A DNA stretch of 64,000 nucleotides from Candidatus Omnitrophota bacterium (GTDB lineage Bacteria; Omnitrophota; Gorgyraeia; Gygaellales; JAHJCI01). Under the pieces are notes generated by a model. That model had not been told where the DNA came from. It did no database searches and saw only the letters and a program-made list of their open reading frames with translations. This document shows, piece by piece, positions 7,501 through 64,000 of this stretch. Within the stretch, counting starts at the first letter, position 1; each line of letters opens with the position of its first letter. The DNA is taken from assembly GCA_016783355.1 (NCBI GenBank), contig JADHWR010000001.1, forward strand, positions 6,072 through 70,071, given 5' to 3'. The position numbers were made by a program, and so were the translations under genes.

Positions 7501-10500
7501 TGGGAAGACCGCACTCTTGCATTTTCAGTTTTGGCTCAACAACAATTACCGAACGACCAGAGTAATCTACACGTTTACCTAAAAGATTCTGCCTGAAACG
7601 ACCCTGCTTTCCTTTAAGCATATCCGCAAGGGATTTTAGGGGTCGATTATTCGCCGTCAAGACTGCGCGGCCATGTCTTCCGTTATCAAAAAGCGCATCC
7701 ACTGCCTCTTGAAGCATTCTTTTTTCATTGCGAATAATAATATCCGGAGAATTTAACTCAATCAGTTTTTTTAGACGGTTGTTGCGATTAATCACCTGAC
7801 GATATAAATCATTCAAATCAGAAGTAGCAAATCTACCGCCATCTAAAGGAACCAGAGGCCTTAGGTCTGGCGGTATAACAGGAAGAACCTCCAAAACCAT
7901 CCATTCAGGCTTGTTGCCTGACTTTTTATAATCCTCGACAAACTTAAGATTTTTTAATAACTTTCGACGAGAAAGATTATCTTTAGACTGAGCGAGGGTT
8001 TTTTTCATTCTGGCAATCAGCTCATCTAAATCTGCTTCCTTCAATAAATCCTGAATTGCCCCTGCTCCAATTTTAGAGACAAAACCTTTATGTTTTTGTC
8101 GTGCTTGTGTATTTTCCTCTTCTGGAAGAAGTTGGCCCCTTTTATACGGCGAATCGCCTGGCTCGCTCACAACGTATGCCTCATAATAAATTATCTTTTC
8201 CAACTCACGCAGCCCCAAACCCAATATGGCCGAAAGCCTGCCGGAGACAACCTTAAAAAACCAGACATGTGTTACGGGTGCGGCTAATTCTATCTGTCCC
8301 ATGCGCTGACGGCGCACCATCGAATGCGCCACGGTTACGCCGCAACGGTCACAGGTAATTCCCTTAAACTTTATACCCTTATATTTGCCGCAGTGACACT
8401 CCCAGTCCTTCGCTGGCCCAAAAATCCTTTCGCAAAAGAGTCCATCTTTTTCCGGCTTAAGCGTACGATAATTAATTGTTTCTGCCTTTCTCACCTCGCC
8501 GCTTGACCAGCTGCGAATAACCTGTGGCGAGGCGATCTTTATACCTAAACTTTCAAATTGATTTGGGTTCTCCTCCCTTAGCTCCTGCTTTTCTATACGA
8601 ATATCAAGACATAAAGCTTGTAATTCTTTCATCAATACATGAAATGACTCGGGAATTCCGGGAAAAATCCTTTGTTCTCCTTTGACAATTGCCTCGTAAA
8701 TTTTTGTCCGGCCGCTAACATCGTCGCTTTTCACGGTAAGCATCTCTTGTAAAATAAAGGCAGCGCCATAGGCCTCTAAAGCCCAAACCTCCATCTCTCC
8801 TAAGCGCTGACCCCCAAACTGTGCCTTTCCTCCTAAAGGCTGCTGAGTAACTAAAGAATAGGGGCCTATAGAGCGGGCATGAATCTTCTCCTCAACAAGA
8901 TGAATCAACTTCATCATATAAATATATCCCACAGAGATATTTTGGGCAAAGGGCTCGCCTGTATAGCCGTCAAAGAGTGTAATTTTACTATCCTCAGGTA
9001 GCCGTGCTTCTTTAAGCATTTGCCTTATTTCTTCCTCGCTTGCTCCATCAAATACAGGAGAGGCAACTTTTATACCCAGACTATGCGCTGCCCAACCAAG
9101 ATGAGTCTCTAAAATCTGGCCGACATTCATGCGCGAAGGAACGCCTAAAGGATTTAAAACAATCTCGACTGGTTCCCCCGATGGCAAAAAGGGCATATCT
9201 TCTTCTGGTAAAATTCTTGCAACTATCCCCTTATTGCCATGACGGCCGGATAACTTATCTCCCTCTTGAAGCCTGTGCTTTGTAGCAATATAGACGATAA
9301 CCTGCTTAAGAACACCGCTCGGTAATTCATCGCCCCGACGCACTGCTTCAATCTCCTGCTTCATCTGAATATCCAATGCCTTGATCTGTTCTACATAAGG
9401 CTGGTTTATCTGGTTTGTTTCAGGATACGTACTTAAATCTAAGTCTGTTAATTCCTCTCTATCTACTTTTAAAACGTCGCACAGCCGCCTCATTCTTTCT
9501 TTATTAAGGAATTCCCTCTCTTCCTTATAATATTGTTTTATCTCCTTAATTCTTTTCTGCTGGCGCAACTTCTCTTCTTTAGACTTCCTCCCTCGCTCTC
9601 GACGACTAAATTCATCAATATGCACGACGATACCTTCGATACCGGGCGGAACAACTAACGAGGTATCGCGCACATCTTCAGCTTTTTTACCAAATATTGC
9701 GCGCAAGAGTCTCTCTTCCGCAGAAAGCTCTGATTCAGTGGTCGGTGTAACCTTGCCAACAAGAATATCCCCTGGCTCAGCCCAGGCGCCAATGCGCACA
9801 ATACCATTTTCGCCAAGACTAAGCAATGCCTCTTCGCTAACATTAGGAATATCCCGCGTAATCTCCTCGTTGCCTAAGCGCGTCTCTGTGGCTTCGATTT
9901 CCAACTTCTCGATATGAATAGAAGTAAAGGCATCTTCCTTGACTATCTTTTCAGAAATCAAGATTGCATCTTCAAAATTGTATCCTCGCCAGGGCATAAA
10001 GGCCACCAATAGGTTTCTGCCCAAAGCAAGTTCTCCATCTTGGGTTGCTATCCCATCGGCAATGATCTGACCTTCTTCTACAAAATCCCCTAACAAAACC
10101 AGCGGTCTTTGATTTATGCAAGTATCGGCATTGGTGCGCAGGAATTTCTTCAATCGATAAGTCTTTTTTCCAATGATGATTGTGGAGGCATCAACAAAGG
10201 TTACCTTGCCGGCCTCTTCGGCAATCACAACTGCACCAGAATCCTCTGCTATCTTCCTTTCCATCATTGTTCCTACAAGAGGTGCCTGCGGATTAAGCAG
10301 TGGCACTGCTTGACGCTGCATATTGGCTCCCATCAATGCGCGATTGGCATCATCGTGCTCTAAAAAAGGAATTAAGGAAGCGGATATCGAAATCAATTGC
10401 TTACAAGACACATCCATAAACTCCACCTTTTTGGCCGCAAGCTTGGGAAAATCAGCTTTAAAACGACAAGATACATCCTTCTCTAAAAGATGACCCCCCT

Positions 10501-11980
10501 TATCCAAGGCAGCATTAGCCTGCGCAATCACCTTTTGCTCATCCAGATCAGCAGTTAGGTATTCAATCTGCTTGGTTGCTTTTGCGTCTTTTACTTTGCG
10601 ATAAGGTGTCTCTAATAAACCGAGGGGGTTAATCCGGGCATATGTAGTCAAGGAAGTAATCAAGCCGATGTTTGGACCCTCGGGGGTTTCTATGGGACAG
10701 AGACGGCCATAATGTGAAGAATGTATATCTCTTACCTCAAAACTGGCGCGCTCGCGCGAGAGGCCACCCGGACCCAAAGCACTCAGCCGGCGTTTATGGG
10801 TTAACTCCGCTAATGGATTTACCTGATCCATAAACTGCGAGAGTTGACCGCGTGTAAAAAAATCATGGATTTGATTGGAAAAAATTTTGAAATTTATGAG
10901 ATGGTAAATGGTTAAGTCTTCTGTCTCGCCCATCAATGTCAATCTTTCTCGAATATTACGTTCAATTCGCGCAAGCCCAATGCGCACCTGATTCTGAGCT
11001 AATTCTGCTACAGTACGTACCCGCCGATTACCCAAATGGTCGATATCATCAATCTTTCCTTTTCCCTCTTTTAAACCGATAAGATAGTTAATAACCTTAA
11101 TTACTGTTTCGTAATCAAGAACTCTTTTATCCAGAGGGGTATCCATTCCTAATTTGCGGTTGAGGATAAATCTGCCGCAGCGACTGAGGTCATACCGGCG
11201 CACATCAAAAAATAAGCGGTAAAATAACTCGGCTGCTGCCTCGGGCGTAACCGGCTCACCCGGCCGCATCTTACGGAAAAAGTCTAATAGAGCTTCTTCT
11301 TTACTCTTTGTGTAATCCCTTTGCAGTGTATTGTTAATTACTGTATTATCTTTTCCAAAAAAACTTTGAATTTCTTCATCAGAGCTTAAACCTAATATAC
11401 GCAGGATCTGTGTGACGGGAAATGTCCGTCGACGATCAATAACTGCCAATATGGCTTCTGAAATATCATATTTAAATTCCAACCATGTTCCCCGATAAGG
11501 AATAATCCTTCCATAAAAAATGCGCTTTCCTGTTATATGCGTTTCCTCTTCAAAAGAAACACCGGGAGAACGATGAAGTTGAAAGATGACAACACGCTCA
11601 TCGCCATTAATAATAAAAGAGGCAGTAGGGGTCATCAAAGGAACCTCACCAAAAAACACATCCTGTTCTAATGTCCTGCTGGCAGAGATAAATCTAAATC
11701 TTACCCATAGTGGTGCAGCATAAGTCATTCCTCTTGTTTTACATTCCTCAATATCATATTTTGGATTACCCAATACATAATTGATAAACTCAAGCCGTAT
11801 GTGCCGGCTCGGTGTTTCAATAGGAAAGAAATTAAGAAACTCTTCCTGTAATCCTGAGCATCGCCTCTCTGAAAAAGGAACATCTTTTTGCAAAAAATCC
11901 TTATAGGCCTTGAGCTGATGCCTCAGAAGATTGGGTACTGAATATACTTCCTTTAGTTTTGCAAAACTCTTTCTCTTCAA
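4580..11980 (-). CDS. rpoBC: DNA-directed RNA polymerase beta-beta' fusion (RpoB-RpoC in one continuous 2466-codon ORF)
   Basis: The N-terminal ~1150 aa are RpoB and end ...[20 protein letters not shown]. The RpoC N-terminus follows with no intervening stop (...[41 protein letters not shown]...), and the ORF ends with the RpoC C-terminus. Confidence 0.9.
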
Positions 11981-12397: not shown

Positions 12398-12494
12398 AAT
12401 GAGTCCGCCAAAGTTCGTTGGCGGACGAATTAATCCCGCTGAGTGTGCCAAAATTATAAAATAGAATTTTGGCACATATTACGAAGCGGGATAA
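12398..12494 (-). ncRNA. Structured leader repeat, copy 1 of 3 (about 100 nt), directly upstream of the rplL ribosome-binding site
   Basis: Its AATGAGTCCGCCAAAGTTCGTTGGCGGACGAATT hairpin is identical to that in copies 2 and 3. A long nested hairpin follows (ATCCCGC...GCGGGAT enclosing GTGCCAAAATT...AATTTTGGCAC). The inner stem differs from copies 2 and 3 by compensatory changes. Confidence 0.6.
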
Positions 12495-15672: not shown

Positions 15673-16326
15673 TTATTCTAAGGCCTTTAAAAGCTCCTCA
15701 CCGAACTCTTTAGCTGCAAATGGACCAGCGGCAGTAATAATATTGCCATCTCTTACTACAGCTCCCCCTGTATAGTTAGCTCCTGCTTGTTGTAACTTCC
15801 CTGCTTCACTTGACCAAACAGTGGCAGATTTACCTTTAAGTAAGCCTGCCTTCGCCAGGATTACAGGAGCAATACAAATTGCGCCAACGATTTTATTTGC
15901 GGCAGAGGCATCCAATGCAATCTTATGGGCTTTGGCATTATCCCAATAAACGCTTGCACCACTGCCACCTATAAAAACCACAGCATCAAAATCAAAAGGA
16001 CTTAGCTCTTCAATCGTTAAATCAGGCTTTATTTTTGCTCCTAACATGCCCTGGGCATAATCTTGCGTAAAAGCAGCAACCTTAACTTCACAGCCTGCAT
16101 CCTCTAAAACCTGTTTGGGAATAAGTAGCTCTTCATCTCTGAAATTTTTCTGCGCAATAATCATCACTACTTTTTTCATCTCTTGGCCTCCTGCCTGCCC
16201 CGTTAGAAACTTTGTTTTTAACGGGGCCTGCGCCCAAACAACCTTTAAGAAAAAGGCACAAAAAAATCCAACCATTAAGCAAAAAACTGTTGTCCATTTC
16301 TGAAGTAGAACAAGATTCTTATTCAA
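15673..16326 (-). CDS. DJ-1/PfpI family protein. The start is ambiguous: either the long ORF has a signal-peptide-like N-terminus, or translation starts at the internal MKKVVMII
   Basis: The class I glutamine amidotransferase-like DJ-1 core has the nucleophile-elbow context ICIAP. A family-1 mini-element lies in the N-terminal extension at 16198-16226. Confidence 0.8.
   Translation of the reverse strand: MNKNLVLLQKWTTVFCLMVGFFCAFFLKVVWAQAPLKTKFLTGQAGGQEMKKVVMIIAQKNFRDEELLIPKQVLEDAGCEVKVAAFTQDYAQGMLGAKIKPDLTIEELSPFDFDAVVFIGGSGASVYWDNAKAHKIALDASAANKIVGAICIAPVILAKAGLLKGKSATVWSSEAGKLQQAGANYTGGAVVRDGNIITAAGPFAAKEFGEELLKALE
16198..16226. mobile_element. Family-1 miniature palindromic element (29 bp) flanked by CCTG direct repeats, in the 5' part of the DJ-1/PfpI ORF
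   Basis: The sequence is CCCCGTTAGAAAC-TTTG-TTTTTAACGGGG. CCTG occurs at 16194-16197 and again at 16227-16230. Confidence 0.6.
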
Positions 16327-22715: not shown

Positions 22716-23529
22716 TTTGTGCCACGATTACCCTGTCTATCCCCTGATAATCCTTAACCACATCTATTATCTTAAACTTCTTTGACTTCTTTATCAATTC
22801 TTTTATCGGCTCGCATTGGCCAAATCCCATTTCCATTATTAAAAAACCATGCTTTTTTAAATAACAACCTGCCTGCGCAATTATGCGAGGATAGAATTCT
22901 AATCCATCTCTGCCACCGTCTAAGGCAACCCTTGGCTCGCAGCACACCTCTGACGATAATGCTTCTATCTCAGCAGTAGGAACATAGGGAGGATTGCTTA
23001 CAATCAAAGTGAAAGGTGAAAAGTGAAAGGTGAAAAGTGAAAATAAATCCCCTTGAATAAATTTAACATTATCGAGGTTATTTAGTCTTGCATTATCCTC
23101 TGCTATTTCTAATGCTTCACCTGAGATATCTATACCGATTACTGCACAATGAGGTAAGAATTTTGCCAAAGATATGGCAATATTTCCGCTGCCTGTTCCC
23201 AAATCTAATACCCTTAACCTTTTACCTTTTACCTTTTCCCGCCTCTTCCCGCCTCTGGCGGGAAACCCTTTACCTATATTTAACGCTGTTTCTACCAAAA
23301 TCTCTGTTTCGGGCCGCGGTATAAAAACATCAGGGGTCAATCGTAATTTTGAATCCATAAATTCTATTTGACCTAAGATATAGTGAATCGGTCTTCCCTT
23401 GCATCTTTGCCTCAAAACACTGGCAATAAACCGACCTTGCTCCCGGCTAATCTTTTTTTGACGATTAAGATAAACCTCGGTTCGGTTATAATTCAAAAGG
23501 TCTGTAAATAATAGCTCTGCTTCATTCAT
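22708..23529 (-). CDS. prmC: Release factor glutamine methyltransferase PrmC/HemK. It contains in-frame low-complexity tracts
   Basis: NPPY motif (SNPPYVP) and [11 protein letters not shown]-binding motif, placed downstream of prfA. Confidence 0.88.
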
Positions 23530-26267: not shown

Positions 26268-26913
26268 TTAAAACATCCCAAATCATCTTAACCTGTTTTT
26301 TTGTCTCAGATTTCGTCCCACTATTATCAATAACAAAATCAGCTAAATTTAGCTTCTTTTTTAATGGCATCTGCAAATTTATGCGCTTTTTAATTTCCGA
26401 AAGGCAAAATCCCTTTTTTTTAAGGCGCAATTTTTGAATGTCTGACCTTGCCCTTACGGCAATTATCTTATCCACGATTCTCGCCAGTCCTGCTTCGATT
26501 AATAAGGGTGCATCAATTATAATAAACTTAAAATTTCGGGCCTGCTGAATCTGTATTTTAATTTCCTTAATTATTCCTGGATGCAGAATTTCGTTGAGCT
26601 TCTTTAGGGAATGCTTATTTCTGAAAGCACTCTTAGCTAACCTTTTTCGATTAATCTGTTGATTCCTGGAAAGTATCCTTTCCCCAAATGCCGCAAGAAC
26701 CCGCCTGTAAGCCCCGTTCGAAGTAAGGCGCCCAAGGCGACTGCCCCGCCAAATTCCGTGGCGGGGACTTCTAACGGGGTAAGCCTTTTTCTTGGGCTCG
26801 ATTAACTGATGCGCAATCCTATCTGCATCAATAATCTGAGCGCCTAATTGTTTAAAATAGTGCGCGCACGTCGTCTTCCCTGTGCCAAAACTGCCGGTAA
26901 TACCAACAATCAT
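26227..26913 (-). CDS. coaE: Dephospho-CoA kinase. The likely start is [15 protein letters not shown]. It carries an in-frame family-1 element
   Basis: P-loop [12 protein letters not shown] and CoaE family sequence. About 24 aa ([23 protein letters not shown]) are encoded by the inserted palindromic element. Confidence 0.85.
26712..26779. mobile_element. Family-1 palindromic element (68 bp) inserted in frame in coaE
   Basis: Termini CCCCGTTCGAAGT...ACTTCTAACGGGG with an inner CCCCGCC...GGCGGGG hairpin. TAAG direct repeats flank both ends, and element plus 4 bp equals 72 bp, which is 24 codons. Confidence 0.7.
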
Positions 26914-28295: not shown

Positions 28296-30964
28296 TTAAT
28301 CTCCTCCATCTCTAACCAATTCTTACCCTTCTTTATTACTACCTTTATGGGAACAGAAAGGGCTAAGGCATTCTCCATCTCATAAGATATCATCTCAATT
28401 GCCCTCTGCAATTGCCCGTTCGGTATCTCAAAAATAAGTTCATCGTGAATTTGCAGGAGGAGCTTCGCCGAAAGCGTTCTTTCCTCAATCTTCTGATATA
28501 TCTTAATCATCGCCATCTTAATTAAATCTGCTGCCGAGCCTTGGATGGATGAATTTACTGCCTGCCTTTCGGCAAATGCACGAACTGCGGCATTCTGATG
28601 ATTAATGTCAGGGAGATAGCGATGGCGACCTAAAATAGTTGTTACAAAATTGTCTTTTTTTGCCTTTTCAATCTGCCTGGCGATATAATCTTTTACTCTG
28701 GGATACCTTAAAAAATAGGCATCAATAAAGCGAGTTGCCTCCTCCCTTGAAATTCCTAATTCCCTTGCTAAACCAAAGGAAGATAGACCATAAATAATTC
28801 CAAAATTTATGCGCTTTGCTACTTCTCGCATCTGATCATTGACAATAGAATCCTCTGTGCCATAAACTAAAGAGGCAGTGGCACGATGTATGTCTTTGCC
28901 TTGCGAAAAAGCATCAATCAGCACCTTCTCGCCTGATAAATGTGCCAGAACCCTTAATTCTACCTGAGAATAATCAAAAGAGACCAAAAAATTATCCTCG
29001 CAACTCGTGATGAAAGCCTTTCGTATCTTGCGCCCTAACTCTGTCTTAATCGGTAGATTTTGCAAATTAGGATTAGAGGAGCTCAGTCTTCCCGTCTGTG
29101 TTCCTGTTTGATTGAAGAATGTATGAATGCGCAGGGTTTTTTTATCTGCCAGTTCCATTAAGGCATCGATATAAGTAGATTTTATTTTACAAAGCATACG
29201 ATATTCCAATAAAATTTTTGGTAAGGGATGCTGGCTTGCTAAGACAGCAAGAACCTCCTCATCGGTAGAGGCGCCTGTCTTTTTCTTTTTTATCACCGGC
29301 AGTTTTAATTTCTCAAAAAGAACCTGACGTAGCTGTAAGGGTGAGTTGATATTAAACGGCCCACCAGCAAGATGATAAATTTTACTGACCAGGCCTTTGC
29401 GCTTTTCTTCAATTTCAATGCCCAAGGCTTTAAGAAACTCTAAATCAAGCTTTATACCCTCTAATTCCATCTGCGCTAAAACAGGAATCAAGCGAATCTC
29501 TAAGTCGCAAAAGATGCGAAAGCTATCTTTAAGCTTTAGTTCTTTCTCTAAAACCGACTTAAGTGTTCCAATAACAACACAAACCTCAAGTGGACTTATC
29601 TTTCCTGCCCCGTTCGAAGTCCCCGCCGTAGGCGGGGCAGTCGCCCCGGGCGTCTTACTTCGAACGGGGCCTGCATCCAAAATTCTCTTCAGATAATCCC
29701 AGCACAGGCTCTCAAGACTATAATCAGACCGGGACGGATTCAAAAGATAAGCAGCAATCATCGTATCAAAACCTAACCCTTCTAGGGCGATATTATGCCG
29801 GGCTAATCGCAAAAAGATATCTTTTAGATTGTGGCCGATTTTCTTAATCTTTGGGTCTCTAAGGACAGGTTCAATGCTCTTTAAGGAGCCTTTCTCTAAT
29901 TCTAAAAAAGAATCACTCTCTGGAAGATAAACTGTCAACCCCTCCTCATTCATATAGAGAATCAACTCACCTGCCTGCCTAAACTGATCAATCCCGGCAA
30001 CCTGCCTGTTGGCACTTCGACGGAGTTTATCCCGAGCGAAGTCGAGGGACTCAGTGCTAGCACTCCGACTTCGCTCAGTGCCAACCCTGAGCTTGTCGAA
30101 GGGTTGCTCAGGTAAATCTTTAAGAAATTTTTTAAATTCTAACTCACGAAAGATTTCATAAAGATTTCTATAGTCAGGCTTCTTTATCTTTAAACTTTGC
30201 GCATCAAATTCTATATCTAAATCTGTCCTTAATTGTGCAAGATAATGACATAGTTTTATTTGCTCAATCTTTTCTTTCAAGCGAGAACGAAGCTTTTGTT
30301 CTTTTATCTGATCCAAATTCAATAAGAGATTTTCCAGAGACTTAAATTTATCCAGGAGCTTGGTGGCGGTCTTTTCTCCTATGCCAGGAACACCCGGGAT
30401 ATTATCAGCTGTATCTCCGGCAAGAGCAATAAAGTCAGCAATTCTGCCGGGTAAAAATCCGTATTGGCGCTTAACCCCTGCCACATCATAAATTATCTTT
30501 TTGTCTTTATGAGGATGCAGAACAATAACTCCCTCATCCACTAATTGCAAGATATCCTTATCAGCGCTGACAATCATTATTGTAAAATCCTTCTCTTTTG
30601 CCTTCCTGGTTAATGTCGCAATAACATCGTCTGCTTCAAAGCCCTCCTTCTCAAATATATTAATTCCAAAGGCCTTGATTATCTTTTTAATGTAAGGCAG
30701 TTGAGTCACTAAATCCGCAGGCATAGGAGGACGTTGTATCTTGTAACGCGCAAATTCTTTTTGGCGAAATGTGTGCCTTGAGACATCAAAACATACACCC
30801 ATATACTGCGGATTTATCTCTTTTAAAACCTTATTCAGAAAATTCACAAAGCCATAAATAGCATTGGTACAAAGACCGTAAGAGGTCGCAAGCCCCCTTA
30901 TGGCATAATAGGCGCGGTAACAGATGCCGTTGGCATCAATAAGTACTACTTGGGCTTTATCCAT
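28292..30964 (-). CDS. polA: DNA polymerase I (5'-3' exonuclease plus polymerase domains) carrying two different in-frame repeat insertions
   Basis: An 890 aa ORF with 5'-nuclease N-terminal sequence, Klenow-like motifs (..DYSQVELRVLAHLS.. ..QIHDELIFE..) and two inserted peptide segments that match the repeat families. Confidence 0.92.
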   Translation of the reverse strand: MDKAQVVLIDANGICYRAYYAIRGLATSYGLCTNAIYGFVNFLNKVLKEINPQYMGVCFDVSRHTFRQKEFARYKIQRPPMPADLVTQLPYIKKIIKAFGINIFEKEGFEADDVIATLTRKAKEKDFTIMIVSADKDILQLVDEGVIVLHPHKDKKIIYDVAGVKRQYGFLPGRIADFIALAGDTADNIPGVPGIGEKTATKLLDKFKSLENLLLNLDQIKEQKLRSRLKEKIEQIKLCHYLAQLRTDLDIEFDAQSLKIKKPDYRNLYEIFRELEFKKFLKDLPEQPFDKLRVGTERSRSASTESLDFARDKLRRSANRQVAGIDQFRQAGELILYMNEEGLTVYLPESDSFLELEKGSLKSIEPVLRDPKIKKIGHNLKDIFLRLARHNIALEGLGFDTMIAAYLLNPSRSDYSLESLCWDYLKRILDAGPVRSKTPGATAPPTAGTSNGAGKISPLEVCVVIGTLKSVLEKELKLKDSFRIFCDLEIRLIPVLAQMELEGIKLDLEFLKALGIEIEEKRKGLVSKIYHLAGGPFNINSPLQLRQVLFEKLKLPVIKKKKTGASTDEEVLAVLASQHPLPKILLEYRMLCKIKSTYIDALMELADKKTLRIHTFFNQTGTQTGRLSSSNPNLQNLPIKTELGRKIRKAFITSCEDNFLVSFDYSQVELRVLAHLSGEKVLIDAFSQGKDIHRATASLVYGTEDSIVNDQMREVAKRINFGIIYGLSSFGLARELGISREEATRFIDAYFLRYPRVKDYIARQIEKAKKDNFVTTILGRHRYLPDINHQNAAVRAFAERQAVNSSIQGSAADLIKMAMIKIYQKIEERTLSAKLLLQIHDELIFEIPNGQLQRAIEMISYEMENALALSVPIKVVIKKGKNWLEMEEIK
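29608..29669. mobile_element. Family-1 palindromic element (62 bp) inserted in frame in polA
   Basis: Perfect TIRs CCCCGTTCGAAGT / ACTTCGAACGGGG with an inner CCCCGCCGTAGGCGGGG hairpin. CCTG direct repeats sit at 29604-29607 and 29670-29673. The element encodes GPVRSKTPGATAPPTAGTSNGAG. Confidence 0.75.
30008..30113. repeat. Family-2 palindromic repeat (about 100 bp) inserted in frame in polA. It encodes DKLRVGTERSRSASTESLDFARDKLRRSANRQ
   Basis: Imperfect palindrome GAGCGAAGTCGAGGGACTCAGTGCTAGCACTCCGACTTCGCTC plus the CCTGAGCTTGTCGAAGGG core shared with the array at 31007-31198. Confidence 0.65.
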
Positions 30965-31006: not shown

Positions 31007-31198
31007 CCTCGACTTCGTCCCTCGACTTCGTCCCTCGACTTCGTCCCTCGACTTCGTCCCTCGACTTCGCTCGGGACGACCCTGAGCTTGTCGAAGGGTC
31101 GCTCGGGACGACCCTGAGCTTGTCGAAGGGTCGCTCGGGACGACCCTGAGCTTGTTGTCGAAGGGTCGCTCAGTGTCAATCCTGAGCTTGTCGAACGG
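31007..31198. repeat. Tandem array of family-2 units upstream of polA: five copies of a 13 bp unit then three copies of a 32 bp unit. This is not a CRISPR array
   Basis: CCTCGACTTCGTC appears five times. CGGGACGACCCTGAGCTTGTCGAAGGGTCGCT appears three times, followed by a partial CCTGAGCTTGTCGAACGG. There are no unique spacers. The array generates the spurious 68 aa ORF at 30973-31179. Confidence 0.8.
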
Positions 31199-31207
31199 AT
31201 TGAATTA

Positions 31208-32152
31208 TTAGTTTTTAGGGGTTAATTCCGTGGCTATCTTTTCTAAAGTCTGCTTTGCAGTTACAATATCATCCTGCTCATAGAATCTGATCGCATCTTG
31301 AAACTTGGCCTGCATAATAGCGATGTGTTCTTGTTTTTGTTTTTCTTTAATCTCTTTATTTATTTTATCTATTAAGGTCAAAAATGAGTCTCTGTCTGAC
31401 GGGTCCAAAGAAATGGCTAACACCAGTGCATTTTTTGCTTCCTCTATTTTGTGCTCTTCATATAAATCATCAGCCAGTTCCTTAAGTTTTTGAATCTCTT
31501 TTAACTCTGTTAATCTGACTGCCTTTTTATGAATGGCGAGCTCACGCACTAAACTAAGCGTCTCTTCCTCTATCAACTCCTGCTGAAGAGAAGGCTGAGT
31601 CTCTGCGATGGCCTGGCGTCTGCGTTTCGCCCACTCCACCCAAGACTCACCGGGAATTCCCAATTCTATACGTTTTTTCCAATAATCAAAAGCCTTCTTT
31701 AGTTCTCTTTTTTGCTCATAAAGCATAGCTAAATTTGAATATAAATTATGATACTGGGGATTTAATTTTAGTCCAACTAAATAAATCTTCTCTGCCCTAT
31801 CAAGTAAACCCTTGGCCTCAAACATAATTCCTAAATCATTGTAAGCAATAACATAAGCAGGGTCTAACTCAATTGCCTTCTGATAACAGACTGTGGCACT
31901 ATCTAAATCACCGCGCTGCTGAAACTGCAAACCTTGACTTCGAAGAAGACGTGCCTCTTTTTGAAAAGTAGTTTGTTTCTGCGCAAAAAGTGAGGTTGGG
32001 AAACAGAATAAGTTAATTGTTATAAATAAATTAATTGCTACAAAAGAGATAATTCCCTTTGTAAACCCCGTTCGAAATTCCTCCAATCTTTGCTTAAGGC
32101 TTAATGATACATAAGTAGCCGAGGCTTTTGAATCTATCTTAAATCTATGCAT
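31208..32152 (-). CDS. TPR-repeat protein with an N-terminal transmembrane/signal segment. The annotated start codon lies inside family-1 element A
   Basis: A 314 aa ORF with a hydrophobic segment (IISFVAINLFITINLFCF) and several TPR-like helices (AYNDLGIMFEAKG...). Confidence 0.7.
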   Translation of the reverse strand: MHRFKIDSKASATYVSLSLKQRLEEFRTGFTKGIISFVAINLFITINLFCFPTSLFAQKQTTFQKEARLLRSQGLQFQQRGDLDSATVCYQKAIELDPAYVIAYNDLGIMFEAKGLLDRAEKIYLVGLKLNPQYHNLYSNLAMLYEQKRELKKAFDYWKKRIELGIPGESWVEWAKRRRQAIAETQPSLQQELIEEETLSLVRELAIHKKAVRLTELKEIQKLKELADDLYEEHKIEEAKNALVLAISLDPSDRDSFLTLIDKINKEIKEKQKQEHIAIMQAKFQDAIRFYEQDDIVTAKQTLEKIATELTPKN

Positions 32153-32171
32153 ATCTAAATTTCGAACGGGG
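32046..32171. mobile_element. Family-1 element A (126 bp) with perfect 13 bp TIRs. TAAA flanks it on both sides
   Basis: CCCCGTTCGAAAT at 32046-32058 and ATTTCGAACGGGG at 32159-32171. TAAA is at 32042-32045 and at 32172-32175. Confidence 0.65.
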
Positions 32172-32433
32172 TAAACCCCGTTCGAAATAGGAAACGCTTT
32201 AATCTATCGTTCAAATAGCGTTTACCCTTTCCAGACTTCAGGTGTTTTTCTCTACTCATTGCATCATATTTATTTAGACAGGCTTCATAATAAATAAGCT
32301 TAAAGGGGCCTCTATTCTTAGTAGAAGACACCTTTCCTGAATTATGCTCACTAAAGCGTTTCCGTAAATCATTCGTTAAGCCTGTATACCATTTTTTATC
32401 TTTCTGGCTTTGAATTACATAAACATAATGCAT
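32155..32433 (-). CDS. Small GIY-YIG (URI-domain, UPF0213/YhbQ-like) nuclease, 92 aa
   Basis: MHYVYVIQSQKDKKWYTGLTNDLRKRFSEHNSG... shows the GIY...YIG spacing, the conserved Arg, and Glu in YYEAC. The last 9 codons (RTGFTPFEI) are read from TIR sequence. Confidence 0.8.
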   Translation of the reverse strand: MHYVYVIQSQKDKKWYTGLTNDLRKRFSEHNSGKVSSTKNRGPFKLIYYEACLNKYDAMSREKHLKSGKGKRYLNDRLKRFLFRTGFTPFEI

Positions 32434-32454
32434 TGCTTGTTATTTCGAACGGGG
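32176..32454. mobile_element. Family-1 element B (279 bp). Perfect 14 bp TIRs enclose a complete GIY-YIG nuclease ORF, and TAAA direct repeats flank both ends
   Basis: CCCCGTTCGAAATA at 32176-32189 and its inverse TATTTCGAACGGGG at 32441-32454. TAAA is at 32172-32175 and 32455-32458. The GIY-YIG ORF (32155-32433) starts 21 bp inside the right TIR boundary. Confidence 0.6.
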
Positions 32455-39282: not shown

Positions 39283-40440
<1,158 letters not shown>

Positions 40441-43287: not shown

Positions 43288-45378
43288 CTATAGTTTTCTT
43301 GCTATCTTCTCAATTTTATAGCCTTCCATTATATCGCCTATTTTATAATCAGAAAAATTACCTATGGATATGCCGCACTCATAACCTTCAGATACCTGAG
43401 AAACCTCATCTTTAAAACGCCGAAGATTGCTAATCTTTCCGCTAAAGATAGTAGTGTTGTCTCTGATTATATCTATATTGAGCGTGCGCAAGATCTTACC
43501 CTTAGTTATAGTACACCCCGCCACAACACCACTTCGCGAGAGATTAAAAACCTGCTTCACGCGTGCCTGTCCAAAAGATACCTTTTTTATCTTTGGGCTT
43601 AACAACCCTTCTAAAGCCGCCTTTATCTCCTCGACTAATTCATAAATTATATTGTATGTCCTTACCTCCACCTGCTCTTTTTTAATTAATTCCTTTGCTC
43701 GCTCTTCTATATTTATATGAAAACCCAAGATTAGCGCATCAGAGACAGACGCCAGCATTACATCTGAAGTGTTAATTAAGCCCACTCCTTTATGGGTTAT
43801 CTTAAATTTTACCTCTTTTGTCTCTAATTTTATTAGAGAATCCCGCACCGCCTCTAATGAGCCGAATGTGTCTGCTTTAATAATAATCTTCAGCTCTTTA
43901 AGAACACCGTTTTTTATTTCCTGATGTAAATCCTCCAGCGAAAACCGATGTGGTGAAATATTCCTTTTTTCCTTTGTCTCGCGCAGCGAGATAAGTGCTC
44001 TTGCCCCTTTCTCGTCCTTGACAACAAAAAATCTCTCTCCTGCCTCAGGCACGGATTCAAAACCTAAAATTCCCACAGGCTGACTGGCAGTAGCTTCCTC
44101 AACTCTCTGGCCACAGTCATTAAATATTGCCTTTACCTTTGCTAAGTTCTTCCCCGCAACAAGTAGATCATTAAGATGTAATTTTCCATTCTGCACCAAT
44201 AAAGTTGCCAGAGGACCCCTGTTTGGGTCCTGTCTTGCCTCAATAACAACACCCCTTGCTATCTGATTATAATCTGCTTTCAATTCTAACATTTCTGCCT
44301 CTAAAAGAATCATCTCTAATAATTCATCTATGCCCTGACCGGTTTTGGCAGAAACCTCTACCGTTACGGTCTTGCCTTGCCACTCCTCAGGAACTAAACC
44401 AATATCAGCAAGTTGCTTCTTTACCCTATCTACGTTAGCCTGAACTCGATCAACTTTATTTATGGCGACAATTATAGGAACCTCAGCATCTCGGGCATGG
44501 TTAATTGCCTCAATTGTCTGAGGCATAACACCATCATCAGCAGCAACCACTAAAACAACAATATCTGTAATCTGTGCGCCCCGTGCACGCATTGCCGTAA
44601 ATGCCTCATGACCGGGTGTATCCAAAAATGCAATCTTACCCTTATCTAAATTAACCTCATATGCACCGATGTGCTGGGTTATGCCTCCATGTTCAAAATC
44701 AACGACCTTTGTCTTTCTAATCATATCCAAAAGGGAGGTCTTACCATGGTCAACATGACCCATAAATGTTACTACGGGTGGACGAACATTTAAATCCTGA
44801 GGCTGGCTTGATACCTCATGTAAGGAAAGCAGGCGTTCTTCTAAAGAGGGAGCCTGCTTGACTTTAAAGCCAAAATTCTCACAAACCTGCTCTACTTCAT
44901 CTTTTCCTAAAGATTGGTTAATGTTGGCTAGGATTTTTAACTTTAAAAGTTCCTGCATTAGCTGCGAGAGTTTAATTTGAAGCTTAACCGCTAAATTCTT
45001 AACAGAAATAGGGAAATCTAATTCTAATACCTTAGCTTGTGGCGCCTCTTCAACCAAAATTGCTTGTAGCTGCTGGGGTTGAGGCTCTAAGGTCTTTGCT
45101 TGAATTTTAGACTTGCGGGAGACTCTTCTCTTTGGTTTAGGGGCTATTTCTTTCCTCTTGATTTGCTTTTTGCCTGGCTCTTTTCGTAGGACCGCAGGCT
45201 TTTTTGCTTTCCTTGCCCCGTTTGAAATCCCTCGCCTAACGGCGGGGGCAGCTACCTTTGGTGTCTTACTTCGAACGGGGTTTGGCTTTGTAGAGGAAGC
45301 CCTTAAGCGAGTCTTTGAAGCCTTTCTCACTTTAGTTTTTAATGCTTTTGGTTTCTTAGGTTTTTTTATCTTTTTCAT
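43288..45378 (-). CDS. infB: Translation initiation factor IF-2 with an in-frame family-1 element in the basic N-terminal region
   Basis: The GTPase domain ([13 protein letters not shown]...) and C-terminal domains are typical. The N-terminal segment NPVRSKTPKVAAPAVRRGISNGA is encoded by the palindrome. Confidence 0.92.
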   Translation of the reverse strand: MKKIKKPKKPKALKTKVRKASKTRLRASSTKPNPVRSKTPKVAAPAVRRGISNGARKAKKPAVLRKEPGKKQIKRKEIAPKPKRRVSRKSKIQAKTLEPQPQQLQAILVEEAPQAKVLELDFPISVKNLAVKLQIKLSQLMQELLKLKILANINQSLGKDEVEQVCENFGFKVKQAPSLEERLLSLHEVSSQPQDLNVRPPVVTFMGHVDHGKTSLLDMIRKTKVVDFEHGGITQHIGAYEVNLDKGKIAFLDTPGHEAFTAMRARGAQITDIVVLVVAADDGVMPQTIEAINHARDAEVPIIVAINKVDRVQANVDRVKKQLADIGLVPEEWQGKTVTVEVSAKTGQGIDELLEMILLEAEMLELKADYNQIARGVVIEARQDPNRGPLATLLVQNGKLHLNDLLVAGKNLAKVKAIFNDCGQRVEEATASQPVGILGFESVPEAGERFFVVKDEKGARALISLRETKEKRNISPHRFSLEDLHQEIKNGVLKELKIIIKADTFGSLEAVRDSLIKLETKEVKFKITHKGVGLINTSDVMLASVSDALILGFHINIEERAKELIKKEQVEVRTYNIIYELVEEIKAALEGLLSPKIKKVSFGQARVKQVFNLSRSGVVAGCTITKGKILRTLNIDIIRDNTTIFSGKISNLRRFKDEVSQVSEGYECGISIGNFSDYKIGDIMEGYKIEKIARKL
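45216..45280. mobile_element. Family-1 palindromic element (65 bp) in frame in infB
   Basis: CCCCGTTTGAAAT...ACTTCGAACGGGG termini with an inner CCCTCGCC...GGCGGGGG hairpin. Element plus 4 bp equals 69 bp. Confidence 0.7.
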
Positions 45379-46549
45379 TTAATGGAATTGTCTTTTTTGC
45401 CTCACTAATTAATTTCTTTGCTTTCTTCTGCCCCATTCCTTTGACCTTGCATAAATCATCTATAGCCGCCCCTGCCAGATCAATAACACTCTTAAAACCT
45501 GCAGCATTTAAATTTTCTAAGAGTTTTTCTCCAACGCCGGAAAGATTTATTAAATCATCCTTGGGAGGTGCCTCCTTTAATCTCTGCTTTTCCACGTCTT
45601 CTGGGCTGCGAATATCTAACTCCCAGCCAACAAGACGACTGGCTAAACGAACATTTTGACCGTTTCTGCCAATTGCTAAAGATAACTGATCTCTATTAAC
45701 AATAACCTCCGCTCTCTGATTTGCTTTATCTAAGCATACCTCTATAATCTGGGCAGGAGAAAGGGCAGCAATAATATAATCTTTCATATTTTCACTATAG
45801 CGAACAATATCAATCTTTTCCCCTCTTAATTCATTAACAACGTTTTTCACGCGGCTACCCCGCATTCCTACGCAGGCACCGACAGAATCGACCCTCTCAT
45901 CCTTTGAATAAACAGTTATCTTCGTGCGTTCGCCTGGCTGGCGAGCAATTGCTCTGATTTCAACAATGCCCTCATAAATCTCAGGAACCTCCAATTCAAA
46001 GATTTTCTTTACAAAATTAGAGTGACTACGGGAAAGAATAATTTGTGCACCCCTGACTTGCTTACTCACCTCTAAAACATAAGTCCGGATACGTTCGCCT
46101 TGACGAAATGTCTCGTTTGGACACTGATGGCGACGTGGCAAAATGCCCTCACCTTTACCTAAGAGATCGATAATGATGCTATTTCTTTCAAAGCGGTACA
46201 CTGTTCCACTAACAATCTCACCTACCCTGTCTTGGAATTCAATAAATATGTTCTCTTTTTCTGCCTCACGAATCTTCTGAATAATAACCTGTTTTGCTGT
46301 CTGAGCAGCAATGCGCCCAAAATCGAGGTCCGTGATTTTCTTACCTTCATATGTTGCCTGAATCTCTCCATTGTTTGGGTTAATGACAACTTGAATGTCA
46401 TGACTCGATTCAAGATTCAATGTTTTCCTAATCGCACTGACCATTGCCGTCTCCACCGCATTAATTAAAACCTCTTTCTTTATTCCTTTTTCTCGTTCAA
46501 TCTGTTCTAATATTGCCAATAATTCCTTAGACATCTCTCTATTCTCCAT
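45356..46549 (-). CDS. nusA: Transcription termination/antitermination factor NusA
   Basis: A 397 aa ORF with S1 and KH domain sequence (..GACVGMRGSRV..) upstream of infB. Confidence 0.92.
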   Translation of the reverse strand: MENREMSKELLAILEQIEREKGIKKEVLINAVETAMVSAIRKTLNLESSHDIQVVINPNNGEIQATYEGKKITDLDFGRIAAQTAKQVIIQKIREAEKENIFIEFQDRVGEIVSGTVYRFERNSIIIDLLGKGEGILPRRHQCPNETFRQGERIRTYVLEVSKQVRGAQIILSRSHSNFVKKIFELEVPEIYEGIVEIRAIARQPGERTKITVYSKDERVDSVGACVGMRGSRVKNVVNELRGEKIDIVRYSENMKDYIIAALSPAQIIEVCLDKANQRAEVIVNRDQLSLAIGRNGQNVRLASRLVGWELDIRSPEDVEKQRLKEAPPKDDLINLSGVGEKLLENLNAAGFKSVIDLAGAAIDDLCKVKGMGQKKAKKLISEAKKTIPLNEKDKKT

Positions 46550-46630
46550 GTTCTTTGTCTAAATATGGGTAAATATGGGGACGGTTCTCGCTATCTTATT
46601 GTAATACAACAAGATAAAAATAAATTTTCG

Positions 46631-46805
46631 CCACAAAGTCGCCACAAAAACGTTGACGACCCGCCAAAGTATTGTGGCGGGATTTGCACCAGAAAGTCGC
46701 CACAAAGCGTTGGCGACCCGCCAAAGTATTATGGCGGGATTTGCACCAGAAAGTCGCCACAAAGCGTTGGCGACCCGCCAAAGTATTATGGCGGGATTGG
46801 CGCAT
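46631..46805. repeat. Three tandem copies of a 57 bp double-hairpin repeat between rimP and nusA, plus a degenerate fourth hairpin
   Basis: Each unit is GTCGCCACAAAGCGTTGGCGAC + CCCGCCAAAGTATTATGGCGGG. Copies start near 46631, 46691 and 46748. The repeats generate overlapping spurious ORFs on both strands. Confidence 0.8.
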
Positions 46806-46853
46806 CCGCCGGTTCTTATTGGAGGCGAATCCGCCAATTATTTTGGCGGAAGC

Positions 46854-47312
46854 TCAAAATTCCAACTTCGCCTTACTAATATTATCCCAGGGTGTCTCTA
46901 GGACCCCCTTTTCGGTTTCCATAATCAATAAATTCTGCTCCACACAAGAAATCACACCTCTAGCCTCCCACTTTCCTTGCTCAGGCTGTTTGAAAAAGAC
47001 CTTTATCTTCTTTTTGATACATCGTCTAAAATCATCTAAATTTAGCAAAGGCCGATCCAAACCAGGAGAGGCAACTTCTAATGTATAAGCATCCTCAATA
47101 ATATTCTCTTCATCTAAAATCTGAGCTATTTCATTATTTAAAGATGCGCACTTATTTAAAGTTACCCCACCCTCTGCCTTATCTACTAAAATACGAAGGG
47201 TTGAGTCTTTTCTTCTGTATTGATAACTCAGATCCACAAGAAAGAGATTTTGCCCTGCCAAATAATTGCTAACTATCTCTCGTAATCTGGACTCTATCTC
47301 GTGTTTGTCCAT
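46854..47312 (-). CDS. rimP: Ribosome maturation factor RimP
   Basis: A 152 aa ORF with RimP family sequence upstream of nusA. Confidence 0.85.
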   Translation of the reverse strand: MDKHEIESRLREIVSNYLAGQNLFLVDLSYQYRRKDSTLRILVDKAEGGVTLNKCASLNNEIAQILDEENIIEDAYTLEVASPGLDRPLLNLDDFRRCIKKKIKVFFKQPEQGKWEARGVISCVEQNLLIMETEKGVLETPWDNISKAKLEF

Positions 47313-55731: not shown

Positions 55732-55826
55732 ATCTCTGCCCTCCCGCCCTGTACCATACGGTACAGGGCCCGCTCCGTACCATACGGTACAGGGCCCGCT
55801 TGTTGTCAAATGTGGAGACCTGACCC

Positions 55827-56922: not shown

Positions 56923-56937
56923 CGCTCCTACCTCCTC

Positions 56938-57031
56938 AATGAGTCCGCCAAAGTTCGTTGGCGGACGAATTGATCCCGCCGAATGCTCTAAAATTATCAG
57001 GGAGAATTTTAGAGCAGTTTATGAGGCGGGG
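56938..57031 (-). ncRNA. Structured leader repeat, copy 2 of 3, directly upstream of the ribosome-binding site of the OmpA-like gene
   Basis: AATGAGTCCGCCAAAGTTCGTTGGCGGACGAATTGATCCCGCCGAATGCTCTAAAATTATCAGGGAGAATTTTAGAGCAG...GAGGCGGGG. Confidence 0.6.
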
Positions 57032-57116
57032 TATGTACATTATTTGGGTCATTCCATAAGTCTCGTCCTTACTTATTTTAAATTATATCTATACCTTCGT
57101 CAATATCTATAAATTT

Positions 57117-62972: not shown

Positions 62973-62983
62973 TGTGACCTCCT

Positions 62984-63085
62984 CAATGAGTCCGCCAAAG
63001 TTCGTTGGCGGACGAATTGATCCCGCCGAATGCTCTAAAATTATCCCCTGCGGGGAGAATTTTAGAGCAGCTTATGAGGCGGGAT
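62984..63085 (-). ncRNA. Structured leader repeat, copy 3 of 3, directly upstream of the clpP ribosome-binding site. A TATAAT box sits just upstream on the minus strand
   Basis: It matches copy 2 but carries an extra apical CCCCTGCGGGG hairpin. On the minus strand, TATAAT lies about 7 nt before the element's 5' end. Confidence 0.6.
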
Positions 63086-63116
63086 ATACATTATTATAGT
63101 AATCTCTTAAAACTAA

Positions 63117-63331: not shown

Positions 63332-63730
63332 TGAGCCACCCGCGACTCGAACGCGGCACACCCGCCTTAAACATTTTTGTTAACTGTATGTCGCCATACA
63401 GATCAGACTATCCCATCCCCCTCACGCTTATCCTTAAAAAAGAAAGCGATGGGGGTCTCGATTATAGTCGTTGAACCTTCCCAGTACTTATTTGCTAAGA
63501 TAATTTCTGATTCAAATAAATGCCGGGCTTGGCTGCAGATTGTCTGCATTTAAGAATTTTTACCCCCGCCACAATACTTTGGCGGGTCGCCAATGCTTTG
63601 TGGCGACAGACATAAAGGGTATCTTAAAATACTCAGACTTTCCCGCAATTTACGAGATTCTCACTATTGATTTCTCAATAATGGCCCCTTTTTCGCGAGG
63701 GCGGTGCTCTACCAGATGAGCTAGTGGCCC
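63332..63730 (-). tRNA. Split tRNA gene (73 nt mature, anticodon inferred UUU, so Lys) interrupted in the anticodon loop by a 326 nt group I intron
   Basis: Exon 1 (63698-63730) is GGGCCACTAGCTCATCTGGTAGAGCACCGCCCT. Exon 2 (63332-63371) is TTTAAGGCGGGTGTGCCGCGTTCGAGTCGCGGGTGGCTCA. The two halves form a complete cloverleaf with a GGGCCAC/GTGGCTC acceptor and a CCGCC/GGCGG anticodon stem. Confidence 0.7.
63372..63697 (-). ncRNA. Group I intron within the tRNA-Lys(UUU) anticodon loop
   Basis: The 5' exon ends in U and the intron ends in G. Intron segments resemble the Tetrahymena P4 (AAAUUGCGGGAAAG), P6 (GCAGCCAAG) and P7 (ACGACUAUAAUCG...GAUAGUCUGAUC) regions. Its P5 region contains a copy of the rimP-nusA double-hairpin repeat. 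Confidence 0.7.
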
Positions 63731-64000
63731 ATTTCTATCTTAAATTTGTAATTATTGCCAAAGAACAAAATCTATATCTATTTCTGATAAGATTTTAATA
63801 ATAAATCTAAGATTTTTCTCTTTGAAATTTTTCTTTTCCAAATTCCATTCTTTCTGCTCGCATTTATATAAATTCTAGGCGAAAAATTTATCTCTTTAGC
63901 AAATCTTAATAAGTTTTCCCTTTTGGAGATTTCTATCTCAGTGCCCCTTTTATTAATTCTGCTCTTTATACCAAAACCATTTAATAAATCTTTTATCTGT

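Follow-up and report, generated by a model that had tools for sequence, protein, structure and literature searches.

How did one and the same small double hairpin come to lie in two unrelated places of a Candidatus Omnitrophota genome, namely the P5 region of a group I intron that interrupts a tRNA-Lys(UUU) gene and the spacer between rimP and nusA? Both places belong to a stretch of 64,000 nt of contig JADHWR010000001.1, the whole of which is hereafter called the window. A preliminary description of this DNA had left two answers side by side, either a small hairpin repeat inserted in a peripheral domain of the intron or a part of the intron periphery that had spread as a repeat. In our view, the 43-nt double hairpin quite probably represents a miniature palindromic repeat specific to this lineage, one copy of which entered the terminal loop of the P5b hairpin by insertion at the DNA level.

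Searching the window with the 43-nt query GTCGCCACAAAGCGTTGGCGACCCGCCAAAGTATTATGGCGGG and allowing up to three mismatches retrieves two copies without mismatch in the rimP-nusA array (46696-46738 and 46753-46795, plus strand) and one with two mismatches in the intron (63565-63607, minus strand), while the mean number of matches in 100 dinucleotide-preserving shuffles was 0.00, with 0/100 shuffles containing any. The reverse complement of the rimP-nusA repeat is thus present in the P5 region of the intron, as had been proposed, with three amendments: the intron and array copies are identical at 41 of 43 bases (95%) and not at about 90%, the intron copy had been put in the right place with numbers off by one, and the stretch shared with the 57-bp unit is the hairpin pair (43 nt) only, the linker ATTTGCACCAGAAA(G), which accounts for 14-15 nt of the 57-nt period, being missing from the intron. 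Within the ~72 kb of this genome that could be covered, i.e., the window and a 7.6-kb extension, four copies of the unit are found at two loci, the intron and the array. The extension is provided by L003, a metagenome contig (ENA) of the same species that was assembled independently from another sample (99.93% identical over 11.6 kb), and the insert is also present in this contig, so it is not an assembly artefact. Indeed, short-read contigs are known to break at the array, which could have pointed to an artefact, but with no shuffle reaching a single match and the insert found in a second assembly, a match by chance or an error of assembly has a negligible probability.

The unit itself is composed of two hairpins of 22 nt each, A and B, with stems of the CCGCC/GGCGG type, that abut with one C in common. 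As judged by eye, hairpin B is the reverse complement of hairpin A at 14/22 positions, and owing to this rough complementarity the 43-mer can form either two hairpins or a single long one of 43 nt. The single long hairpin is the minimum-energy fold for RNA and DNA alike, with a folding energy of -24.3 kcal/mol (z -5.3) for RNA and of -15.3 kcal/mol (z -5.6) for DNA. All genes of the window are on the minus strand and, relative to transcription, the intron reads B then A and the array A then B. The unit has therefore opposite orientations at the two loci, which fits an element acting at the DNA level.

Regarding the host, the interrupted tRNA-Lys gene is missed by both ARAGORN and the Rfam tRNA model. 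The intron belongs to the RF00028 family (92.6 bits against a gathering threshold of 50), and Rfam places it at 63384-63728 on the minus strand with ~82 unaligned bases in the P5 loop. Junctions read by hand (GGGCCAC...CCGCCCU / intron / UUUAAGGCGG...) locate the intron between U33 and U34 of the anticodon loop, in a split tRNA gene extending from 63730 to 63332 (minus strand), and joining the exons at these positions gives a 73-nt tRNA-Lys(ttt) in ARAGORN, which confirms the hand-read splice sites. In P1, CCCU pairs with GGGG and thereby forms the U.G pair at the 5' splice site; the intron also has a terminal G (...AAAUG), and its P2 and P9 are capped by GAAA and GCGA, respectively. Self-splicing of the intron is predicted.

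The direction of transfer is established by comparison with orthologous introns. Homologs of the LAGLIDADG gene that precedes the tRNA (58-78% identity) were used as an anchor, and five other Omnitrophota (L045, L041, L042, L037 and L050) have this gene followed by an orthologous intron-bearing tRNA-Lys, in 5/5 cases; these five introns and that of the window make up the comparison. ClpP relatives, considered as another route, led to loci with tig upstream of clpP and no intron there. The tRNA exons are conserved in every ortholog that includes them, and P4, P5, the 7-bp P5a and the 5-bp P5b are kept in all five (alignments A1-A4). The terminal loop of P5b is short and variable in the relatives (5-14 nt), whereas in the window it consists of UUUAUGUCU and the 43-nt pair, with a net length difference between the window and its closest relative, L045, of exactly 43 nt. 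Moreover, 97.1% of the cells are paired when the four helices are read across the six sequences, versus 30-49% when the partners are slid, and pairs changed on both sides occur twice in P5a and twice in P5b. Because of this covariation and of the empty sites, the P5a and P5b stems can be regarded as ancestral and the unit as an insertion into the P5b loop. On the evidence of these alignments, the repeat is inserted into the intron and not exported from it. Of the two answers initially envisaged, the insertion of a small hairpin repeat in a peripheral domain is hence the one that holds, five orthologs keeping P5a and P5b without the unit, and the spread of the intron periphery is contradicted by the same empty sites. 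A birth of the unit in the intron periphery followed by outward spread is highly improbable for a further reason, as the same hairpin pair occurs inside elements that are not introns, in coaE, polA and infB, and at a non-intron site of L050, whose own intron has no unit. It may be said for such an origin that a P6 hairpin of the L037 intron is one base away from a hairpin dispersed in the window, which points to some exchange, in either direction, between intron periphery and repeats.

The insertion into the loop that closes the P5-P5a-P5b arm would have taken place after the split from the closest sampled relatives. It would have been tolerated because this loop is the distal end of a peripheral arm; the core and both exons are intact. 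The unit is predicted to lengthen P5b as an added helix. With the insert, the P5 arm folds as one continuous arm with an extension on P5b (-38.4 kcal/mol, z -5.9); the P5 arm of L045 has a folding energy of -9.7 kcal/mol. The intron of the window scores 92.6 bits versus 78.6-89.6 bits for its orthologs. In IC3-type introns such as that of Azoarcus, the distal tip of P5 is directed away from the core and, by analogy, an insert at this position should be tolerated. A preprint on tRNA introns lists 21 classes and acknowledges extraneous loop insertions in bacterial tRNA introns (10.1101/2020.01.27.920355).

The LAGLIDADG_3 gene used as an anchor is free-standing, encodes 281 aa and is located between frr and tRNA-Lys (63778-64000, minus strand, continued at L003:7009-7854), the gene order in this species being tsf-pyrH-frr-LAGLIDADG_3 gene-tRNA-Lys(intron)-tRNA-Leu-tRNA-Gly-clpP. 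It ends ~40-60 nt ahead of the tRNA and thus lies outside the intron and not in an intron loop. The gene is kept in at least six Omnitrophota species, including the five with orthologous introns, at 58-78% identity, and many homologs are found on contigs of ~1 kb. Its product could act as a maturase or represent a homing endonuclease that has been domesticated.

At the second locus, the spacer between rimP and nusA is expanded, with 304 nt versus 4 nt in L048, the nearest relative found (NusA 69% identical). The array would have arisen by a separate insertion of the 43-nt unit, with tandem amplification afterwards. Short-read metagenome contigs of the same species stop in the array or at its edge (L001 at 46812, L002 at 46822 and L046 at 46711), so the figure of 3.1 copies comes from the contig of the metagenome-assembled genome alone. 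As read with moderate confidence, the sequences on either side of the array, TCGCCACAAAG (46628-46638) and ATTGGCGCA (46796-46804), resemble the two halves of a B-type hairpin, and the linker ATTTGCACCAGAAAG resembles a fusion of these halves.

Beyond these two loci, the window contains a family of palindromic elements in which the same hairpin pair recurs. Hairpins of the form CGCCA-N6-10-TGGCG are found 13 times in the window versus 0.21 expected, and following one of them inside coaE led to elements with inverted ends. Seven such elements of the window are bounded by CCCCGTT[A/C]GAA[G/A]T and its complement, this motif being present 15 times versus 2.9 expected; the 13-nt inverted ends read CCCCGTTCGAAGT / CCCCGTTNGAART. 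Taking these seven together with the element found in another Omnitrophota species (L017), the 4-nt direct flanks are perfect in 6/8 elements and agree at three of four bases in the other two. When the elements lie inside open reading frames (ORFs), their length plus the 4-nt duplication is a multiple of three in 5/5 copies (four of the window and that of L017), and their in-frame translation is always PVR(S/N)...(T/I)SNG. As compared to the homologs of the Protein Data Bank (PDB), CoaE has ~24 extra residues exactly at the element and TGT has ~9 at its 29-nt element, while the polA element falls in the variable PolI linker, where the PDB alignment speaks neither for nor against extra residues. 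Since the Pfam domain of the DJ-1/PfpI ORF begins only at residue 51, the element at 16198-16226 may lie in a 5' untranslated region. The coordinates of all these features are gathered in the table below.

Table. Location of the intron, its insert, the rimP-nusA array and the elements with inverted ends; positions are those of the window unless a contig is named.
Feature	Position	Strand	Remarks
Group I intron, 326 nt	63372..63697	-	RF00028, 92.6 bits, E 1.4e-24, full model 1-253
tRNA-Lys(UUU) 5' exon, 33 nt, last base U33	63698..63730	-	ARAGORN on joined exons
tRNA-Lys(UUU) 3' exon, 40 nt, start UUUAAGG	63332..63371	-	ARAGORN on joined exons
Host hairpin, insert in its terminal loop	63549..63628	-	P5a 63628-63622/63555-63549; P5b 63621-63617/63565-63561
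43-nt double-hairpin insert	63565..63607	-	41/43 to array; missing from five orthologous introns
Hairpin B, first in RNA sense, GUCGCCACAAAGCAUUGGCGAC	63607-63586	-	
Hairpin A, second in RNA sense, CCCGCCAAAGUAUUGUGGCGGG	63586-63565	-	
GUCU, four loop bases adjoining the insert	63608..63611	-	L045 has AUU instead; alignments A2, A4
Tandem array, 57-nt period, 3.1 copies	46624..46798	+	Tandem Repeats Finder
Array hairpin pairs	46638-46681 (more diverged), 46696-46738, 46753-46795	+	
Single related hairpin TCCGCCAATTATTTTGGCGGA	46830..46850	+	next to rimP stop codon
Genes flanking the array	rimP 46854-47312, nusA 45356-46549	-	Pfam
29-nt short form	16198..16226	.	flanks CCTG/CCTG; at or before 5' end of DJ-1/PfpI gene
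68-nt palindromic element inside coaE	26712..26779	.	inverted ends CCCCGTTNGAAGT, flanks TAAG; 68 + 4 = 72 nt, in frame
62-nt element inside polA	29608..29669	.	flanks CCTG/CCTG; hairpin A, CA, hairpin B; 62 + 4 = 66 nt
106-nt element with inverted ends	32066-32171	.	flanks TAAA; boundary of GIY-YIG and TPR ORFs
279-nt element with inverted ends	32176-32454	.	flanks TAAA; carries GIY-YIG ORF; adjoins 106-nt element
GIY-YIG ORF, 92 aa, MBL7080989.1	32155-32433	-	PF01541, E 3.3e-19; NCBI: GIY-YIG nuclease family protein
29-nt short form inside tgt	39867..39895	.	inverted ends, 3-nt loop, no hairpin pair
65-nt element in 5' part of infB	45216..45280	.	interior hairpins more diverged; 65 + 4 = 69 nt
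Element of the same kind in tig, another Omnitrophota species	L017:4353-4405		flanks TAGA

The interiors of the 62-68 nt elements read CCCCGCC-loop-GGCGGGG, CA, GTCGCC-loop-GGCG(A/C/T)C, that is to say the A, B order of the 43-nt unit; in coaE, hairpin A is CCCCGCCACGGAATTTGGCGGGG, followed by CA and by hairpin B (GTCGCC..GGCGCC). Homology of the 43-nt unit with the interiors of the coaE, polA and infB elements is likely on this basis. A pair more closely related to the unit than the tig element, TCCGCCACAAAGCTTTGGCGGA and CCCGCCAAGAATTTTGGCGGG, is found downstream of tRNA-Gly in another Omnitrophota species (L050:10413-10455), and the two stem differences between this pair and hairpin B of the window are compensatory (G-C to T-A and T-A to C-G). 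In the surrounding region (L050:10360-10480), a direct repeat of ~24 nt that duplicates the 3' end of the tRNA (TCTCCCGCTCTGGAAT.A.AAAG) brackets the double hairpin. A derivation of the 14-15 nt array linker from fused inverted ends was discarded, the likeness being too weak. Finally, TGT of the nearest relative (L048:8261-8380) has another insertion, a (GTTGTCA)n-like repeat, in the very surface loop where the window has its 29-nt element, and this loop may be an insertion hotspot.

The hairpin pair is located in the loop of another hairpin in 4/4 contexts: P5b in the intron, the palindrome made by the 13-nt inverted ends, the array, where the host hairpin is a split B-type hairpin, and L050, where it is ATGGGTT..AATCCCAT. 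This suggests a loop-targeted insertion, the proof by empty sites being confined to the intron. We infer that the unit arrived by non-autonomous transposition, in a REPIN- or MITE-like manner (REPINs being inverted doublets of repetitive extragenic palindromic sequences, or REPs, and MITEs miniature inverted-repeat transposable elements), and not by recombination, with a preference for the loops of pre-existing hairpins. Having two hairpins, no inverted ends and no duplication, the 43-nt unit is in this respect more like REPINs or IS200/IS605-type single-strand elements than like the flanked elements in which it is contained. A TTAC-type target was envisaged, as TTAC stands before the intron unit on the plus strand and CTTAC flanks the coaE element; it was abandoned since the array and L050 do not share it.

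Several results weigh against a mobile repeat. The unit is known from two loci only, within ~72 kb of the genome, and the intron copy lacks inverted ends as well as any flanking duplication recognizable in the alignments with the empty sites. The scanned ORFs of at least 90 aa in the window and its 7.6-kb extension encode no transposase, be it of the RAYT/IS200 type (RAYT, REP-associated tyrosine transposase) or other. Moreover, the likeness of the unit to the coaE, polA and infB interiors concerns mainly the stems, their order and their junction, and not the loops. Exact-pattern scans of 185,579 species-representative genomes (GTDB), JGI metagenomes and IMG/VR likewise retrieved no true copy, in DNA collections that do not include the source species and with a pattern too strict for the L050 variant, so they say little about copy number. 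The matches obtained with CGACCCGCCAAAGNNNNNNTGGCGGG, four in genome contigs and seven in metagenome contigs, were dismissed as due to chance, all lying in unrelated GC-rich contigs without the first hairpin. In IMG/VR, nothing was retrieved with the 43-nt unit, with the small hairpin or with the inverted-end element, and neither the array nor the polA element had a BLAST match among plasmids. When the translated array (57 nt, equivalent to 19 codons) was compared with 1.84 billion representative proteins, four matches were obtained, all of them unrelated repeat proteins.

Part of these results would also suit a one-off copying event without transposition, by template switching or gene conversion between the array and the P5b loop in either direction. 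The two known loci are 17 kb apart on one contig, the intron site has neither flanking duplication nor inverted ends, no transposase is seen nearby among the scanned ORFs, and GC-rich palindromes are prone to template switching. However, the two sites have no flanking homology beyond the 43 nt, the hairpin pair is also present in three dispersed elements with flanking duplications, and a related pair occurs at an unrelated locus of another species (L050), so we hold such an event to be rather unlikely. The double hairpin could also be a functional RNA module, such as a protein-binding site or a folding aid, recruited to the intron and to the rimP-nusA leader and kept under selection. In line with this idea, the unit folds stably whichever way it is read (z about -5), its stems in the window and in L050 differ by compensatory changes, and related hairpins stand just ahead of start codons of highly expressed genes. 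The idea is nevertheless very unlikely: the unit is missing from five orthologous introns that are splice-competent by sequence, its orientation to transcription is reversed between the two loci, rimP and nusA have no real spacer in the nearest relative (L048), and copies lie inside coding sequences too.

Insertion of a miniature palindromic repeat at the DNA level remains therefore the reading that we favor, and it raises the question of the enzyme in charge. The GIY-YIG nuclease encoded by the 279-nt element may be the autonomous partner of the inverted-end elements; the exact protein (MBL7080989.1) is found on two contigs only. A bolder proposal, in which the A and B pair would be the mobile core of an undescribed Omnitrophota system that enters hairpin loops and is moved by this nuclease, is distinctly unlikely. 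If true, it would represent a new kind of prokaryotic transposon and would explain the entry of the pair into structured-RNA genes and, in frame, into housekeeping ORFs.

Other repeats were encountered in the window. A repeat of ~115 nt, with 91-98% identity between copies (12398-12490, 56930-57044 and 62977-63095), is composed of a long hairpin with a CCCGCC/GGCGGG base, of the hairpin TCCGCCAACGAACTTTGGCGGA and of an end that is a Shine-Dalgarno sequence, and each copy directly precedes a start codon, namely that of rplL, of an OmpA-family gene or of clpP. In the L037 intron, the P6 hairpin mentioned above (GTCCGCCAACTAACTTTGGCGGAA, L037:4048-4071) is identical to the small hairpin of this 115-nt repeat but for one base, and the L042 intron has the same P6 stem with a loop of 3 nt; this likeness may reflect a second exchange between dispersed hairpins and intron periphery. 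The spacer between polA and the TPR gene (31007-31195) is full of tandem repeats (a 13-mer x4.8 and a 32-mer x3.9), inside which ARAGORN calls a tRNA-Pro(CGG) at 31068-31153 that has no Rfam support and is probably false. A 26-nt palindromic tandem repeat (CCCGCTCCGTACCATACGGTACAGGG x2.2) lies upstream of a DUF4912 gene (55743-55800), and the prmC ORF contains tandem repeats of 7-14 nt and a CCCGCC..GGCGGG hairpin (23006-23043 and 23209-23265). Besides these repeats, rpoB and rpoC are fused in a single ORF of 2466 aa (4580-11980, minus strand), with the beta domains at residues 17-1131 and the beta-prime domains at residues 1140-2407.

The filled and empty sites of the tRNA-Lys intron amount to a clean natural experiment, according to which the distal loop of the P5 arm can absorb a structured insert of 43 nt, and they tie this insert to a miniature palindromic family in a poorly studied, uncultivated phylum. 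While the intron insertion is of moderate interest by itself, the family of elements inside ORFs is of more interest, its members being in frame in essential genes (coaE, polA, infB and tgt), a situation like that of the Rickettsia palindromic elements (RPEs) outside obligate intracellular bacteria. Annotation is affected as well, as the repeats break short-read assemblies and add spurious residues to conserved proteins, and the tRNA-Lys gene is hidden from the usual finders. If the mobilizing enzyme is identified, the family would provide a compact model for the spread of palindromes that spares the function of the host RNA or protein.

Among known systems, REPs, REPINs and bacterial interspersed mosaic elements of Proteobacteria come close. 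In REPINs, two REPs in inverted orientation form hairpins with compensatory changes, and tandem arrays including flanking sequence occur at times (PMC3116915); REP doublets are mobilized by RAYT transposases (PMC3116915, PMC3337134). Such systems are characterized by tens to hundreds of extragenic copies in a genome and by a cognate RAYT (Y1/HUH transposase) gene, which REPs usually flank. The Omnitrophota unit shares with these families imperfect palindromes of ~22 nt, of which an inverted pair gives one long hairpin, as well as compensatory stem changes, a lineage-specific and intergenic distribution and ordered arrays including flanking sequence (PMC3116915, PMC3337134). Indeed, as in a REPIN, two inverted palindromic units of the 43-nt sequence fold into one hairpin. 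In contrast to REP doublets, which span 71-110 nt, the unit is 43 nt in total with no spacer between the hairpins and no RAYT is seen in the scanned ORFs; related copies lie inside coding genes and an intron, which is atypical of REPs. As no RAYT was seen and copies were counted in ~72 kb only, we do not claim membership of the REPIN/RAYT system. Regarding MITEs, the combination of inverted repeats and target-site duplication that characterizes them is present in the related elements of 29-279 nt and absent from the 43-nt unit of the intron.

RPEs lie between genes and in frame in housekeeping genes and have proliferated in a lineage-specific manner (PMC1779305). The related elements of 62-68 nt in coaE, polA and infB, and the 29-nt form in tgt, are comparable, as they are inserted in frame, with extra residues seen in CoaE and TGT, a property that the intron copy does not have. 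RPEs are however 100-150 bp long and belong to an unrelated phylum, and the likeness considered here is one of placement; moreover, the elements described here have clear 13-nt inverted ends and 4-nt duplications, whereas the 43-nt unit has neither. Another parallel is the tRNA-Leu(UAA) group I intron of Nostoc, in which the length of P6b varies by repeat motifs, with a stem that is lengthened or branched and a core that stays intact (PMC4476775). In both cases, a peripheral stem-loop of a bacterial tRNA group I intron is enlarged by repeats. In Nostoc, 7-nt motifs build the P6b stem, whereas the insert of the tRNA-Lys intron is a self-contained double hairpin of 43 nt within the P5b loop that is also found at a distant intergenic locus. 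Double-hairpin elements in intergenic regions, introns and variable rRNA loops were reportedly described by Paquin et al. in 2000. In two reports, the double-hairpin elements of fungal mitochondria are presented as very small and optional between close relatives, their mobility being deduced from this optionality (PMC7218506, PMC4478555). Those elements are organellar and eukaryotic and have no sequence relationship with the unit described here, with which they share the character of a tiny GC-rich palindromic pair that is optional between relatives. The entry of small palindromic repeats into tolerant RNA loops is a type of event that is already known, and the tRNA-Lys intron of this Omnitrophota bacterium is a clean example of it.

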